Positions 9,568-25,690 of a DNA stretch of 64,000 nt are shown here, piece by piece (the stretch's first letter is position 1; each line of letters starts with the position of its first letter). The translations under genes were made by a program, and so were the position numbers. This DNA is from Escherichia coli (GTDB taxonomy: Bacteria; Pseudomonadota; Gammaproteobacteria; Enterobacterales; Enterobacteriaceae). The notes under the pieces were generated by a model. It was given only the letters and a program-made list of their open reading frames with translations. It ran no database searches and was not told the origin of the DNA. The stretch lies in the NCBI RefSeq assembly GCF_022846255.1, contig NZ_AP025682.1, one strand, 5' to 3'.

Positions 9568-11157
9568 TTACATCACCAGACGGCGAATGTCAGACAGCGT
9601 GTTGTTAATGATGGTAATGAAACGGGCACCATCAGCACCGTCGATCACGCGGTGGTCGAAGGAGAGAGAAATCGGCAGCATCAGACGCGGCACGAACTCT
9701 TTACCATTCCACACCGGCTCCATCGCGGACTTGGAAACGCCGAGGATAGCCACTTCCGGCGCGTTCACAATCGGCGCGAAGTGGGTAGTCCCCAGGCCGC
9801 CGATGCTGGAGATGGTGAAGCAACCGCCCTGCATTTCGCCCGCAGTCAGCTTACCGTCACGCGCTTTCTTAGAAATAGTCATCAGCTCGCGAGACAGCTC
9901 GATGATGCCTTTCTTGTTGACGTCTTTGAATACCGGAACAACCAGACCGTTCGGGGTATCCACCGCCACACCGATGTTGATGTATTTCTTCAGGGTCAGA
10001 CGCTGACCGTCTTCCGACAACGAACTGTTGAAGCGAGGCATCTGCTCAAGAGCTGCAGCAACGGCTTTCATGATGAAGACAACTGGGGTTATCTTCACAT
10101 CCAGCTTACGTTTCGCCGCTTCTTCGTTCTGCTGTTTACGGAACGCTTCCAGCTCGGTGATATCGGTTTTGTCGAAGTGGGTAACATGCGGGATCATCAC
10201 CCAGTTACGGCTCAGGTTCGCACCAGAGATTTTCTGGATACGGCCCAGTTCCACTTCTTCGATTTCACCAAACTTGCTGAAGTCCACCTTCGGCCACGGC
10301 AGCATACCTGGGATACCGCCGCCAGTCGCCGCCGGAGCCGCTTCTGCACGTTTGATAGCTTCTTTCACGTAAGCCTGAACGTCTTCGCGCAGGATACGAC
10401 CTTTACGGCCAGTGCCCTTCACTTTCGCCAGGTTAACGCCAAATTCGCGTGCCAGACGGCGGATCAGCGGAGTCGCGTGAACGTAAGCGTCGTTTTCAGC
10501 AAATTCAGATTTGCCTTCGGCTTTCGCAGCCGGAGCTGCTGCTGGAGCTTCAGCTTTTGCTGCCGGAGCCGGCGCTGCCGCTTCCTGTTTCGCAGGAGCT
10601 GCCGCAGGCGCTGCGCCTTCAACTTCGAAGATCATAATCAGCGAGCCAGTTTTCACTTTATCGCCAACGTTGACTTTCAGTTCCTTCACGACGCCTGCAA
10701 ACGGAGCCGGAACTTCCATAGACGCTTTATCGCCTTCTACGGTGATCAGCGACTGTTCAGCTTCAACTTTATCGCCAACTTTCACCAGGATTTCGGTCAC
10801 TTCAACTTCGTCGCTGCCGATATCCGGAACGTTAACGTCTTTTGCCGCTGCAGCCGCTGGAGCTGCTGCCGGAGCGGCTTCTTTCTTCTCTTCTGCCTGA
10901 GCAGGTGCAGCGTCTGCTGCACCGTCGGCGGAATCGAAAATCATAATCAGTGCGCCGGTCTGGGTTTTATCGCCAACAGAGACTTTGATCTCTTTAACGA
11001 TACCCGCCTGCGGAGACGGAACTTCCATAGAGGCTTTGTCGCCTTCTACGGTGATCAGCGACTGTTCGGCTTCAACTTTGTCGCCCACTTTGACCAGGAT
11101 CTCGGTGATTTCAACTTCATCAGCCCCGATGTCCGGTACTTTGATTTCGATAGCCAT
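9568..11157 (-). CDS. aceF: dihydrolipoyllysine-residue acetyltransferase, pyruvate dehydrogenase E2; this allele has two lipoyl domains (529 aa)
   Basis: Full-length ORF; two KASMEV lipoylation motifs, Ala/Pro linkers, E3-binding and catalytic domain ending DHRVIDGA...RRLVM. Confidence 0.95.
10667..11150. repeat. intragenic direct repeats (~165 nt each, ~320 nt apart) encoding the AceF lipoyl domains
   Basis: Near-identical blocks around 10667-10832 and 10985-11150 (gtgatcagcgactgttc...ggcttcaactt...). Confidence 0.8.
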
Positions 11158-19100: not shown

Positions 19101-19302
19101 TTGCTGACAGATTTATCCGCTCCATCGCGGGCGGATAATCTCCCCTTTCCCAACTTTCTTCGTAACGCCTCGCAAATTTCTTGTCTTTCGCTGCAACGTA
19201 ATAAAAAACTCCGGAAGCTGCTTTCCCGTTTCGTTTTTTGCCCCTCGCTTGTGCTGATGGCGTTTGCCAAAGTAGCGCCAACCAAATCAAGGAGCGAAAC
19301 AA

Positions 19303-19743
19303 ATGGACAAGCAACGCGGTTTTACACTTATCGAACTGATGGTGGTTATTGGCATCATTGCCATTTTAAGCGCCATTGGTATTCCCGCTTATCAAAACTA
19401 CCTGCGCAAAGCCGCACTCACCGACATGCTACAAACCTTTGTGCCTTACCGTACCGCCGTAGAGTTGTGCGCGCTGGAACATGGTGGATTAAATACCTGC
19501 GACGGTGGCAGCAATGGCATTCCTTCGCCTACCACCACCCGCTATGTTTCAGCCATGAGTGTGGCAAAGGGCGTGGTGTCGCTGACCGGGCAAGAAAGTC
19601 TCAATGGGCTAAGCGTCGTCATGACACCGGGTTGGGATAACGCAAACGGCGTCACCGGCTGGACGCGTAACTGCAATATTCAAAGTGACAGCGCATTGCA
19701 GCAAGCCTGCGAAGATGTCTTCCGCTTTGATGACGCCAACTAA
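19303..19743 (+). CDS. ppdD: type IV prepilin PpdD (146 aa)
   Basis: N-terminal prepilin leader and cleavage motif MDKQRGFTLIELMVVIGIIAILSAIGIP. Confidence 0.93.
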   Translation: MDKQRGFTLIELMVVIGIIAILSAIGIPAYQNYLRKAALTDMLQTFVPYRTAVELCALEHGGLNTCDGGSNGIPSPTTTRYVSAMSVAKGVVSLTGQESLNGLSVVMTPGWDNANGVTGWTRNCNIQSDSALQQACEDVFRFDDAN

Positions 19744-19752
19744 GGAGCGGCA

Positions 19753-21138
19753 ATGAATATTCCACAGCTCACCGCCCTGTGTCTGCGTTATCAGGGAGTC
19801 TTGCTGGATGCCAGCGAAGAGGTGGTTCATGTTGCGGTAGTCGATGCACCTTCGCATGAGCTACTGGACGCATTGCATTTCGCTACCACCAAACGTATTG
19901 AGATCACCTTCTGGACGCGCCAACAAATGGAAGGTCACGCCAGTCGCACACAACAGACATTGCCCGTAGCTGTTCAGGAGAAGCATCAGCCCAAAGCAGA
20001 GTTGCTGACTCGAACGTTACAATCTGCGCTAGAACAACGCGCGTCTGATATTCATATCGAACCAGCGGACAATGCCTACCGCATCCGCTTGCGTATCGAC
20101 GGCGTATTGCATCCTTTACCGGACGTTTCACCGGATGCCGGAGTCGCATTAACCGCCAGATTAAAAGTGCTGGGAAACCTGGATATTGCGGAACATCGCC
20201 TGCCGCAGGACGGGCAATTCACTGTCGAACTGGCAGGAAACGCCGTCTCATTTCGTATTGCGACCTTAGCATGTCGGGGTGGTGAAAAGGTGGTATTAAG
20301 GTTGTTACAGCAGGTGAACCAGGCACTGGATGTTAACACGCTTGGAATGCAGCCGTCACAACTGGTGGACTTTGCTCATGCCTTGCAACAACCACAGGGA
20401 CTGGTGCTGGTAACTGGCCCTACAGGCAGCGGCAAAACGGTCACGCTTTATAGTGCCCTGCAAATGCTGAATACCGCTGACATTAATATTTGTAGCGTCG
20501 AAGATCCGGTTGAGATCCCCATAGCCGGACTAAACCAGACGCAAATCCATCCGCGTGCCGGACTCACCTTTCAGGGCGTTTTACGTGCGTTATTGCGCCA
20601 GGATCCTGACGTCATTATGATCGGAGAGATCCGCGATGGCGAAACGGCAGAAATTGCCATTAACGCCGCACAAACGGGTCATCTGGTATTGTCCACCCTA
20701 CACACCAACTCCACCTGCGAAACGCTGGTACGTTTACAGCAAATGGGAGTCGCCCGCTGGATGCTCTCATCAGCGCTTACGCTGGTAATAGCCCAGCGTC
20801 TGGTACGCAAACTTTGCCCACATTGTCGCCGACAGCAAGGGGAGCCAATCCATATTCCAGACAATGTATGGCCGTCGCCGCTGCCCCGCTGGCAAGCACC
20901 CGGTTGTGTACATTGCTACCACGGTTTTTATGGTCGCACGGCCTTATTTGAAGTTCTGCCCATAACACCGGTCATACGTCAGCTTATTTCCGCTAATACC
21001 GACGTTGAATCGCTGGAAACGCACGCCCGACAGGCGGGTATGCGAACGCTTTTTGAAAACGGCTGTCTGGCCGTGGAGCAAGGCTTAACCACCTTTGAAG
21101 AGTTAATCCGCGTATTGGGGATGCCGCATGGCGAGTAA
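19753..21138 (+). CDS. hofB: type IV pilus assembly ATPase HofB (461 aa)
   Basis: GspE/PilB-family ORF with Walker A GPTGSGKT and C-terminal CxxC pairs. Confidence 0.93.
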   Translation: MNIPQLTALCLRYQGVLLDASEEVVHVAVVDAPSHELLDALHFATTKRIEITFWTRQQMEGHASRTQQTLPVAVQEKHQPKAELLTRTLQSALEQRASDIHIEPADNAYRIRLRIDGVLHPLPDVSPDAGVALTARLKVLGNLDIAEHRLPQDGQFTVELAGNAVSFRIATLACRGGEKVVLRLLQQVNQALDVNTLGMQPSQLVDFAHALQQPQGLVLVTGPTGSGKTVTLYSALQMLNTADINICSVEDPVEIPIAGLNQTQIHPRAGLTFQGVLRALLRQDPDVIMIGEIRDGETAEIAINAAQTGHLVLSTLHTNSTCETLVRLQQMGVARWMLSSALTLVIAQRLVRKLCPHCRRQQGEPIHIPDNVWPSPLPRWQAPGCVHCYHGFYGRTALFEVLPITPVIRQLISANTDVESLETHARQAGMRTLFENGCLAVEQGLTTFEELIRVLGMPHGE

Positions 21139-22330
21139 GCAACTCTGGCGCTGGCGTGGCATAACCGGCGACGGCAATGCGCAAGATGGGATGCTATGGG
21201 CAGAGAGCCGTGCTTTGCTGCTTATGGCACTACAGCAACAGATGGTTACCCCACTAAGCCTGAAGCGAATCGCCATCAATTCTGCGCAGTGGCGAGGAGA
21301 TAAAAGCGCGGAAGTCATTCATCAACTGGCGACGCTACTCAAAGCCGGGTTAACGCTTTCTGAAGGGCTGGCACTGCTGGCGGAACAGCATCCCTGTAAG
21401 CAATGGCAAGCGTTGCTGCAATCGCTGGCACACGATCTCGAACAGGGCATTGCCTTTTCCAATGCCTTATTACCCTGGTCAGAGGTATTTCCGCCGCTCT
21501 ATCAGGCGATGATCCGCACGGGTGAACTGACCGGTAAGCTGGATGAATGCTGCTTTGAACTGGCGCGTCAACAAAAAGCCCAGCGTCAGTTGACCGACAA
21601 AGTGAAATCAGCGTTACGTTATCCCATTATCATTTTAGCGATGGCAATCATGGTGGTTGTGGCAATGCTGCATTTTGTTCTGCCGGAGTTTGCCGCTATC
21701 TATAAGACCTTTAACACTCCGCTACCGGCGCTAACGCAGGGGATCATGACGCTGGCAAGCTTTAGTGGCGAATGGGGTTGGTTGCTGGTGCTATTCGGCT
21801 TTCTGCTGGCGATAGCCAATAAGCTGCTGATGCGCCACCCAACCAGGCTTATCGCACGGCAGAAATTGCTGTTACGCATCCCGATTATGGGTTCACTGAT
21901 GCGGGGACAAAAACTCACGCAGATCTTTACGATTCTGACGCTGACACAAAGTGCAGGCATTTCTTTTTTACAGGGCGTTGAGAGCGTCAGAGAAACAATG
22001 CGCTGCCCGTACTGGGTGCAACTTCTGACACAAATCCAGCACGATATCAGTAACGGTCACTCCATCTGGCTGGCGCTAAAAAATGCCGGTGAGTTTAGCC
22101 CGCTCTGTTTGCAATTAGTGAGAACAGGAGAGGCATCCGGCTCGCTGGATCTCATGTTAGACAACCTCGCCCATCATCATCGGGATAACACAATGGCGCT
22201 GGCGGATAACCTCGCAGCCTTACTGGAACCGGCGTTGCTGATCATAACGGGAGGAATTATCGGTACGCTGGTGGTGGCAATGTATCTGCCAATTTTCCAT
22301 TTAGGCGATGCGATGAGTGGAATGGGATAA
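21128..22330 (+). CDS. hofC: type IV pilus platform protein HofC (400 aa)
   Basis: GspF/PilC-family polytopic membrane ORF, overlaps hofB by 11 nt. Confidence 0.93.
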   Translation: MASKQLWRWRGITGDGNAQDGMLWAESRALLLMALQQQMVTPLSLKRIAINSAQWRGDKSAEVIHQLATLLKAGLTLSEGLALLAEQHPCKQWQALLQSLAHDLEQGIAFSNALLPWSEVFPPLYQAMIRTGELTGKLDECCFELARQQKAQRQLTDKVKSALRYPIIILAMAIMVVVAMLHFVLPEFAAIYKTFNTPLPALTQGIMTLASFSGEWGWLLVLFGFLLAIANKLLMRHPTRLIARQKLLLRIPIMGSLMRGQKLTQIFTILTLTQSAGISFLQGVESVRETMRCPYWVQLLTQIQHDISNGHSIWLALKNAGEFSPLCLQLVRTGEASGSLDLMLDNLAHHHRDNTMALADNLAALLEPALLIITGGIIGTLVVAMYLPIFHLGDAMSGMG

Positions 22331-22356
22331 CGCTGGCGTGTTGCTCCACGCCAGCG
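22331..22356. terminator. bidirectional terminator hairpin between convergent hofC and guaC
   Basis: cgctggcgtg / cacgccagcg inverted repeat filling most of the 34-nt gap. Confidence 0.65.
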
Positions 22357-22364
22357 TTGGTATA

Positions 22365-25212: not shown

Positions 25213-25690
<478 letters not shown>

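Follow-up and report, generated by a model that had tools for sequence, protein, structure and literature searches.

Is the "cryptic" ppdD-hofB-hofC locus of Escherichia coli the residue of a lost type IV pilus system, or the maintained core of one that is expressed only under particular conditions? We consider this for the copy carried in a 64-kb window (i.e., the whole stretch of DNA analysed, 64,000 nucleotides), which is E. coli DNA with ~99% identity to strain A37 and, from cueO through yabI, follows the gene order of annotated E. coli genomes. We hold with high confidence that ppdD-hofB-hofC is the core operon of the E. coli chromosomal type IVa pilus (the competence, or haemorrhagic coli, pilus), that it is conditionally expressed, and that it is under purifying selection; "cryptic" is thus to be read as conditionally silent, not dead. 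Published work already covers the locus itself, how CRP and Sxy regulate it, the structure of the pilus, and the complete set of parts, and there is nothing new in the finding of the operon as such.

The ORF list of the window contains three adjacent same-strand frames (Table 1), in none of which a frameshift or internal stop is present, and the lengths of which equal those of K-12 PpdD, HofB, and HofC. A preliminary description of this DNA had reported a full-length prepilin, assembly ATPase, and platform protein without frameshifts; re-inspection of the three genes found none, and the intact frames, equivalog matches, and fully retained diagnostic motifs bear that description out. The hofB start lies 9 nt past the ppdD stop, with the hofB Shine-Dalgarno sequence overlapping that stop, while hofC begins within the last 11 nt of hofB, an overlap that suggests translational coupling. 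Gene junctions are compact and terminator-like sites inside the operon occur at chance level (6 found versus 4.3 expected), by which internal terminators were ruled out. The hairpin in the gap between hofC and guaC folds at -23.4 kcal/mol (z = -4.25; none of 200 shuffled sequences was as stable) and is probably a terminator shared by the two genes, albeit one with a stem lacking a following T-run. The sole Rfam hit, to the family tpke11 in the same gap, was discarded as chance-level (E = 0.53).

Table 1. Positions of the ppdD-hofB-hofC genes and of associated sequence elements in the window
Feature	Position	Strand	Description
Distal CRP-S site, TTCGT-N6-TCGCA	19156..19177	+	22 bp; centre 19166.5
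CTGCAAC block	19191..19197	+	Conserved; T45, G46, A48, A49 at 90-100%
Proximal palindrome, CGGAA-N6-TTCCC	19209..19230	+	Centre 19219.5; 53 bp from distal site
T-tract and CCTCGC block	19234..19248	+	TT and TCG at least 90% conserved
TGcCAAAGT, extended -10-like	19265..19273	+	G119, C121, A122, A124, G125, T126 (near-)invariant in 34 species
ppdD Shine-Dalgarno, AAGGAG	19289..19294	+	AGGAG at least 90% conserved; 8 nt before ATG
ppdD	19303..19743	+	Type IVa major prepilin, 146 aa; 6-residue leader and 140-residue mature pilin
hofB	19753..21138	+	PilB/GspE-family hexameric assembly ATPase, 461 aa, short N-terminus
hofC	21128..22330	+	PilC/GspF-family inner-membrane platform protein, 400 aa
13-bp GC-rich hairpin	22328..22359	.	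34-nt gap between convergent hofC and guaC

PpdD combines N_methyl (E = 2.5e-10) and Pilin domains and scores 269 bits against NCBIfam PRK10574 (cut-off 138). Its leader MDKQRG is followed by FTLIELMVVIGIIAIL, with Gly-1, Phe+1, and Glu+5 all present, constituting a class III signal peptide; the leader and cleavage motif described earlier can be seen in the protein as MDKQRG followed by FTLIE. A single hydrophobic segment spans residues 9-27, and there are four cysteines (Cys56, Cys66, Cys124, and Cys136). The protein has the traits of the type IVa subclass, i.e., a leader of <10 residues, a mature length of ~140-160 residues, and C-terminal disulphide cysteines (Cys124 and Cys136). The whole mature protein (residues 7-146) matches residues 1-140 of the chain in PDB 6gv9 (E = 1.5e-90), which along with 6gms is a structure of the PpdD pilus.

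HofB displays a T2SSE domain (E = 7.9e-145), Walker A (GPTGSGKT), Asp-box (EDPVE), Walker B (VIMIGEIRD), and His-box (GHLVLSTLH) motifs, as well as a tetracysteine zinc motif (CPHC...CVHC), and it scores 818 bits against NCBIfam PRK10436 (cut-off 617). It falls under the cut-offs of both the TIGR02538 PilB model (480 bits, cut-off 676) and the GspE equivalog model (453 bits), thus forming a subfamily of its own. Compared to type IVa PilB, HofB lacks ~100 N-terminal residues, with the alignment beginning at PilB residue 173-200, and its MshEN match is partial only. HofC contains two T2SSF domains (E = 1.6e-56) and three hydrophobic segments, scores 651 bits against NCBIfam PRK10573 (cut-off 401), and matches PilC of PDB 3jc8 (E = 1.6e-43). 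PilB and PilC homologues occur in solved pilus machines. The same families also serve as the entry point for a different reading, in which the three genes would act in type II secretion and PpdD would be a pseudopilin expelling proteins. GspE and PilB structures align to HofB about equally well, HofB carries the RefSeq name "GspE", the NCBIfam equivalog that it matches is named "type II secretion system protein GspE", and the Klebsiella Pul secreton is reported to be able to assemble PpdD (work cited in PMC2649431). We nonetheless regard such a function as very unlikely, given that PpdD folds as a type IVa pilin and its pilus has been solved, that HofB scores higher on PilB than on GspE (though under both cut-offs), that the core partners in the species are the PilMNOPQ-like HofMNOPQ rather than GspC/L/M, and that E. 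coli type II secretion systems encode their own GspE, F, and G at other loci.

A type IVa pilus requires more than these three proteins, and the preliminary description had found no prepilin peptidase, secretin, or minor pilins in the window. None is present in the cueO-yabI stretch, with the qualification that yacC (257-604) encodes a PulS/OutS-type pilotin family member (37.6 bits on PF09691, cut-off 25); in a six-frame scan of the window for the prepilin motif, PpdD was the only match in a real ORF. Across the species, hofMNOPQ and ppdAB-ygdB-ppdC are each core (5425/5426 complete E. coli genomes), whereas the peptidase genes are not, with gspO detected by megablast in 3158 and pppA in 3640 of the 5426 genomes (58-67%). 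With 64 kb read, the presence of hofMNOPQ, the minor pilins, and a peptidase in the source genome is assumed from these species frequencies. On this basis, the PpdD prepilin would enter the inner membrane and be cleaved after Gly6 by a peptidase from elsewhere (GspO or PppA). The HofB ATPase, seated on the HofC platform, would power PpdD filament assembly, for which the unlinked HofMNOP alignment complex, the HofQ secretin, and the PpdA-PpdB-YgdB-PpdC minor pilins would also be required. In published work, the machine has been reconstituted and PpdD pili have been constructed with 13 genes, hofB and hofC among them (10.1101/856302; Luna Rico 2019, as cited in 10.1101/2022.09.21.508927). PpdD pili are made by EHEC (PMC2920817, PMC2649431), and Sxy leads to processed PpdD and hofQ-dependent DNA uptake (PMC3330819).

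Expression would be governed from a single transcription unit with coupled translation, preceded by a weak activator-dependent promoter with a CRP-S site; such a promoter would leave the operon silent in ordinary culture and allow it to be turned on by cAMP-CRP together with Sxy (TfoX). In K-12, transcription of ppdD needs CRP, cAMP, and Sxy; CRP binding to its promoter has been shown, and induction of the operon by Sxy together with CRP reaches ~90-fold (PMC1635313). According to the primer positions, the distal CRP-S site lies within the ppdD fragment bandshifted by CRP in that study. This site is identical in seven E. coli lineages, its CG and T..CA positions are at least 90% conserved in sets of 34 and 79 species, and its hallmark GCCTCGCAAAT half-site is identical to that of the sxy promoter; its words recur in the K-12 promoters of sxy, ybaV, and ycaI. 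Across the promoter as a whole (19101-19302), 10 positions differ between the window and K-12, none of which is in the distal CRP-S or TGCAAC blocks and one of which sits in the spacer of the proximal palindrome. A promoter scan returned no consensus sigma-70 promoter upstream of ppdD. Based on the extended -10-like element, transcription is predicted to start near 19280; in the model we prefer, the T-tract and CCTCGC block would provide an UP-like element and a weak -35 region, and a CCCTCG block likewise precedes the CATACT hexamer of ppdA by 17 bp. A class II CRP position (-41.5) was rejected for either CRP-like site, as there is no conserved -10 element at the distance this would demand. 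A conserved RNA structure or riboswitch upstream of ppdD was also rejected, RNAalifold having predicted zero pairs from 34 species. No natural inducing condition is known for the E. coli operon (PMC3330819).

Two further conserved blocks occupy the interval downstream of the distal site. The CTGCAAC block may be either a CytR-type half-site (TGCAA/GTGCAAC) or a weak -35 hexamer. In the proximal palindrome, GAA and TTC are 90-100% conserved, 4 of 10 CRP core positions are matched, and CGGAA, which forms its left half, is also the distal half-site sequence in the functional CRP-S site of sxy (PMC6728893); the palindrome may be a CRP-S-like site with weak halves or an operator for some other dimer. 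Several other assignments were discarded: (i) a canonical CRP/FNR site at GGAA-N6-TTCC, as the GA..TC pairs are 2 bp too wide and the critical G7 is missing; (ii) sigma-54, sigma-E, sigma-28, PurR, Cra, or IHF sequences, to which the blocks surrounding the palindrome do not conform when judged by eye; and (iii) a nadC terminator, for which the plus-strand hairpin is weak and unsupported. The scan had flagged the palindrome as a weak minus-strand hairpin.

The operon is found in 5424/5426 complete E. coli genomes, in which it has 97-99% DNA identity to the window copy and the same neighbours, so that its earlier identification as the known cryptic locus of E. coli stands. Beyond the species, 80 Enterobacteriaceae species keep the order ampD-nadC-ppdD-hofB-hofC-guaC, and intact copies of all three genes are present in 75/78. 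That selection maintains the operon had initially been a guess from intactness alone; it is now backed by this intactness across species, by dN/dS values, at divergences reaching dS of 2 and beyond, of 0.02-0.07 for ppdD, 0.07-0.14 for hofB, and 0.07-0.19 for hofC (versus 0.03-0.10 for flanking ampD and nadC), by a pN/pS of 0.09-0.25 within E. coli, and by the sporadic nature of disruptions. On these sequence comparisons, purifying selection on the operon, as opposed to decay, is supported. Were it instead a non-functional evolutionary remnant, intact by chance in the source strain and subject to neutral drift, its silence under laboratory conditions in K-12, 72 ECOR strains, and UPEC would be accounted for (PMC3330819, PMC2649431), as would occasional pseudogenes, namely hofC W117* in O55:H7 strain DEC5E and disruptions of hofC in L018, ppdD in L020, and hofB in L027. 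These lesions are, however, sporadic and private, with W117* being a singleton in 3800 genomes; the possibility of a hofC pseudogene as an O55:H7/O157:H7 lineage trait was ruled out, since W117* is private to DEC5E. Together with dN/dS values the same as or near those of flanking housekeeping genes, and promoter blocks kept across genera, this renders the remnant reading exceedingly improbable, and indeed already contradicted.

What, then, is the maintained pilus selected for? Across genera of the Enterobacteriaceae, PpdD has a median identity of 85%, versus 66% for HofB and 59% for HofC, and it is more conserved than both in 73/73 species. This high relative conservation of the pilin, apparent from the aligned proteins, is a side result that is new to us. 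That the pilin is under tighter constraint than the motor and platform that serve it speaks against immune-driven diversification and in favour of a conserved molecular interaction, either with DNA or with the machinery. Host-exposed adhesive pilins are usually not so invariant. This bears on the possibility that the machinery and regulation are as described above, with the selected function being adhesion and colonization (as the haemorrhagic coli pilus) rather than uptake of DNA, including as food. In its favour, the pilus mediates EHEC adherence, invasion, and cytokine induction (PMC2920817), and UPEC hofQ mutants are poor at kidney colonization (PMC2649431). We consider this a credible, if unlikely, account, as it sits poorly with the invariance of the pilin and with membership of the operon in the Sxy/CRP-S competence regulon, in which the uptake of DNA on Sxy induction depends on hofQ (PMC1635313, PMC3330819). 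Adhesion and DNA uptake need not exclude each other.

The promoter also offers a clue as to natural signals. CytR cassettes are described as two CRP sites ~49-53 bp apart (PMC4581735), and CytR motif words as TGCAA or GTGCAAC (PMC3454398). In ppdD, the CRP-type centres are 53 bp apart (with only a 4/10 core match at the proximal one), versus 52 bp in udp, 53 bp in deoP2, and 50 bp in cdd, and a TGCAAC word is offset by +25 bp relative to the centre of the distal CRP site, just as in the CytR cassette of K-12 udp; upstream of ppdA, this word recurs at an identical spacing. The ppdD promoter may resemble the udp, deoP2, and cdd cassettes in having CRP-type sites 50-53 bp apart with TGCAA(C) between them, but differs in that its proximal site is a poor CRP match and only a single TGCAA is clear, i.e., one conserved CTGCAAC with a second repeat that is at best degenerate (TTGTC). 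Clear tandem TGCAAC-type repeats are located upstream of ppdA and hofM. The hofM repeat lies within the mrcA coding sequence, where conservation would be confounded. This CytR-type layout at ppdD, ppdA, and partly hofM, new to us, hints at nucleoside control; in a search of the available literature, two papers mentioned both CytR and ppdD, neither of which connected them. It is a rather doubtful proposition, built from motif positions, that the Enterobacteriaceae pilus promoters of ppdD, ppdA, and probably hofM are CytR/CRP cassettes, with a distal CRP-S site, TGCAAC at +25, and a CRP-like palindrome 52-53 bp downstream. In V. cholerae, pilA, the minor pilins, and pilMNOPQ require both CytR and TfoX. 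If the proposition is true, nucleoside-sensing CytR and Sxy would jointly control the E. coli DNA-uptake pilus in parallel with V. cholerae, which could help explain the silence of the operon; it thus supplies a testable idea regarding the natural signals that unlock E. coli DNA-uptake genes.

Ultimately, the value of this analysis lies in a cleanly verified annotation, and in showing quantitatively that an operon termed "cryptic" experiences purifying selection of the same strength as its housekeeping neighbours. The K-12 and EHEC operon (ppdD-hofB-hofC, or hcpABC; b0108-b0106) matches the window in its genes and their order and lengths, in having nadC and guaC as neighbours, and in its promoter blocks; we infer that the window allele behaves likewise in induction, assembly, and DNA uptake. 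The window allele is nonetheless of another lineage: no complete E. coli genome matches it at 99% identity or more over ppdD-hofB-hofC, it differs from K-12 at one residue in PpdD (N64D), 9 in HofB, and 14 in HofC, and six amino-acid changes are private to it relative to six comparison strains (F53, N304, and R379 in HofB; R10, C90, and S312 in HofC), with the private hofC changes (3 non-synonymous to 1 synonymous) being too few to interpret. With the Sxy/TfoX-CRP competence pilus operons of Haemophilus influenzae and V. cholerae, the E. coli operon has in common a CRP-S site (C6/G17) upstream of the pilin gene and dependence on Sxy (PMC1635313), its own site differing in being asymmetric. PilA-PilB-PilC, the type IVa pilus core in Pseudomonas, Myxococcus, and Vibrio (pilABCD), have in common with the E. 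coli proteins a class III signal peptide on the pilin, all of the PilB-family ATPase motifs, and the paired T2SSF domains of the PilC platform. The E. coli operon departs from pilABCD in having no pilD, in that the peptidase is borrowed from type II secretion loci, and in that its pilin is the most conserved component rather than the most variable.

The preliminary description had placed an intact type IV pilin operon at 19303-22330, and open reading frames, family models and diagnostic motifs agree that its three genes are full length there (Table), with the same lengths as b0108, b0107 and b0106 of K-12. PpdD carries the Pfam domains N_methyl and Pilin, HofB carries T2SSE, and HofC carries T2SSF in two stretches; the corresponding NCBIfam equivalogs PRK10574, PRK10436 and PRK10573 score 269, 818 and 651 bits (cut-offs of 138, 617 and 401). 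The PpdD leader reads MDKQRG/FTLIE with Glu+5, in a protein with four cysteines, and its cleavage site is confirmed by the PpdD structures (PDB 6gv9 and 6gms), in which the mature chain begins at query residue 7. HofB displays Walker A, Asp box, Walker B, His box and tetracysteine (CPHC...CVHC) motifs, and HofC has three hydrophobic segments. The locus encodes a pilin whose class III signal is cleavable, together with a complete ATPase of the PilB type and a platform of the PilC type. Flanked by nadC on one side and convergent guaC on the other, the genes form one compact transcription unit: hofB starts 9 nt after the ppdD stop, which its Shine-Dalgarno sequence overlaps; hofB and hofC overlap by 11 nt; and a stable hairpin (-23.4 kcal/mol, z = -4.25) occupies the hofC-guaC gap.

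Coordinates of genes and promoter blocks in the window
Feature	Position	Strand	Description
yacC	257-604	+	PulS/OutS type II secretion pilotin family, PF09691, 37.6 bits (cut-off 25)
aceF	9568-11157	-	529-aa E2 subunit, two lipoyl domains
CRP-S site	19156-19177		conserved block
CTGCAAC	19191-19197		conserved block
Palindrome CGGAA-N6-TTCCC	19209-19230		conserved block
T-tract + CCTCGC	19234-19248		conserved block
TGcCAAAGT	19265-19273		conserved block
ppdD Shine-Dalgarno sequence	upstream of ATG		conserved block
ppdD	19303-19743	+	ORF, 146 aa
hofB	19753-21138	+	ORF, 461 aa
hofC	21128-22330	+	ORF, 400 aa
yacG-mutT interval	25228-25305		~113 bp of strain A37 missing

Around the operon, strain A37 is 98.8-99.0% identical to the window and other Escherichia species at most 95.6%; the source is E. 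coli sensu stricto. Over the operon, all complete E. coli genomes stay below 99% identity, so the lineage has no close representative among them. Annotated E. coli genomes are collinear with the window between cueO and yabI, a stretch that contains neither a prepilin peptidase nor a secretin nor a minor pilin, and PpdD is the sole match to the prepilin motif in a real ORF in a six-frame scan. The reported lack of such partners within the 64 kb accordingly holds, with the qualification that yacC is a further gene related to secretion or pilus machinery, the only one in the window; we know of no link between yacC and HofQ. Elsewhere, aceF encodes two lipoyl domains where three are usual, through an in-frame loss of 306 nt relative to strain A37, a form with collinear matches in only ~8 of 5423 complete E. 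coli genomes, and the yacG-mutT difference is probably variation of a REP-type intergenic element.

Maintenance by selection, proposed from intactness, is borne out by comparison. Nearly all complete E. coli genomes carry the operon (5424 of 5426). When each bacterial species was sampled by one genome, all 80 Enterobacteriaceae loci recovered keep the order ampD-nadC-ppdD-hofB-hofC-guaC-coaE, and among the 78 that contain the three genes, 75 have every one of them intact. Pairwise dN/dS between the window and six Escherichia lineages plus four genera beyond Escherichia ranges over 0.02-0.07 in ppdD, 0.07-0.14 in hofB and 0.07-0.19 in hofC (flanking ampD and nadC, 0.015-0.10), and pN/pS among seven E. 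coli sequences is 0.25, 0.09 and 0.17, respectively. A hofC nonsense mutation in O55:H7 DEC5E (W117*, positions 2676-2678 of that locus; labelled a pseudogene in RefSeq) is private to this strain, i.e., one of the 3800 genomes matching the segment. Disruption thus occurs without spreading, the signature of purifying selection. At the species level, hofMNOPQ and ppdAB-ygdB-ppdC are each found in 5425 of 5426 complete genomes, and the peptidase genes gspO and pppA in at least 3158 and 3640, respectively (megablast counts, hence lower bounds); the prepilin peptidase is the sole accessory part of a system in which every other pilus cluster is core.

Major pilins are the most variable components of textbook type IVa systems, whereas in this operon the pilin is the most conserved one. 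Median identity to 75 non-Escherichia species is 84.6% for PpdD, matching AmpD (84.6%) and near NadC (86.1%), versus 65.6% for HofB and 59.0% for HofC; PpdD exceeds both in 73 of 73 species, and the minor pilin PpdA is just 57-66% identical in Klebsiella and Salmonella. No discussion of this reversal was found in the literature searched.

Gene order, lengths, family models and the published pilus all identify the locus with the known E. coli one. Given the published structure, Sxy/CRP induction and reconstituted pili, the operon itself is already known. CRP binds the ppdD promoter weakly, and Sxy induces ppdD 90-fold in dependence on CRP and cAMP (PMC1635313). Sxy expression yields processed PpdD and hofQ-dependent DNA uptake, and in ordinary culture 72 ECOR strains all fail to make PpdD (PMC3330819). 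CRP-S promoters act like class I promoters and require CRP-Sxy contact (PMC6728893). EHEC is reported to form PpdD pili (PMC2920817), and UPEC to show a hofQ phenotype (PMC2649431). A set of ppdD, hofBC, hofMNOPQ, ppdAB-ygdB-ppdC and gspO has been used to rebuild pili (10.1101/856302; Luna Rico 2019, cited in 10.1101/2022.09.21.508927). According to this literature, the prepilin is inserted and then cleaved, HofB/HofC drive polymerisation through HofMNOPQ, and cAMP-CRP with Sxy provides induction. The window allele, whose HofB and HofC carry six private substitutions between them, would be expected to work likewise, and "cryptic" is best taken to mean tightly regulated.

The promoter, predicted to be activator dependent, has a conserved CRP-S site. 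Alignments of the nadC-ppdD interval from 79 and 34 species resolve discrete conserved blocks (Table), which no conserved RNA structure or Rfam family accounts for. We favour a transcription start near 19280; an extended -10 element would then span -15 to -7, with positions of -60.5 for the palindrome and -113.5 for the distal CRP-S site. In six E. coli promoters examined (ppdD, 19170-19174; sxy, ybaV, ycaI, yifB and ppdA, K-12 loci L086, L087, L088, L089 and L083), the conserved CRP-S half-site lies within a narrow range, 119-137 nt upstream of the start codon.

The K-12 ppdA promoter can be aligned with the ppdD promoter along 67 bp that run from the CRP-S site as far as CCGGAAG.TGC (z = 4.6; none of 300 shuffles did as well). 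Across eight genera, the promoter of ppdA retains a pair of CRP-S-like sites separated by 52 bp, and between them TGCAAC occurs twice as a direct repeat with 10-bp spacing. Its layout (L083 4679-4800, minus strand; alignment A2) is common to the ppdD promoter. An invariant CA(T/C)ACT hexamer 6 nt 5' of the ppdA ATG and the absence of a Shine-Dalgarno sequence suggest a leaderless ppdA mRNA. Upstream of K-12 hofM, within the first mrcA codons (L082 4402-4417), a tandem TGCAAC-N4-TGCAAG with the same 10-bp spacing lies 152-162 nt from the hofM ATG; the whole 64-kb window contains no such tandem (0.48 expected by chance).

TGCAA and GTGCAAC are published CytR half-site words (PMC3454398), and V. 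cholerae pilA, minor pilins and pilMNOPQ require CytR with TfoX (PMC4581735). Together with the promoter geometry given below, this makes it reasonable to read the ppdD promoter as a putative CytR/CRP cassette. Against that reading, the proximal ppdD site is a poor CRP match, just one half-site is clear, and CTGCAAC could simply be a weak -35 hexamer, in which case the distal CRP-S site would drive a class I promoter. In the classical CytR-regulated K-12 promoters deoP2 (upstream of deoC) and cdd, the distal CRP sites have TCGCA / TGCGA half-sites and carry C6/G17, the signature defining CRP-S sites. Possible CytR control of the promoter is the one modestly interesting lead. Measured directly on K-12 sequence, the known CytR cassettes have CRP-type sites 52 bp (udp), 53 bp (deoP2) and 50 bp (cdd) apart, with TGCAA(C) at +25 from the distal site in udp and +17 in deoP2 and the word TTGCA in cdd, a geometry like that of the ppdD promoter, where the two putative CRP-type sites are spaced 53 bp and TGCAA(C) lies at +25.
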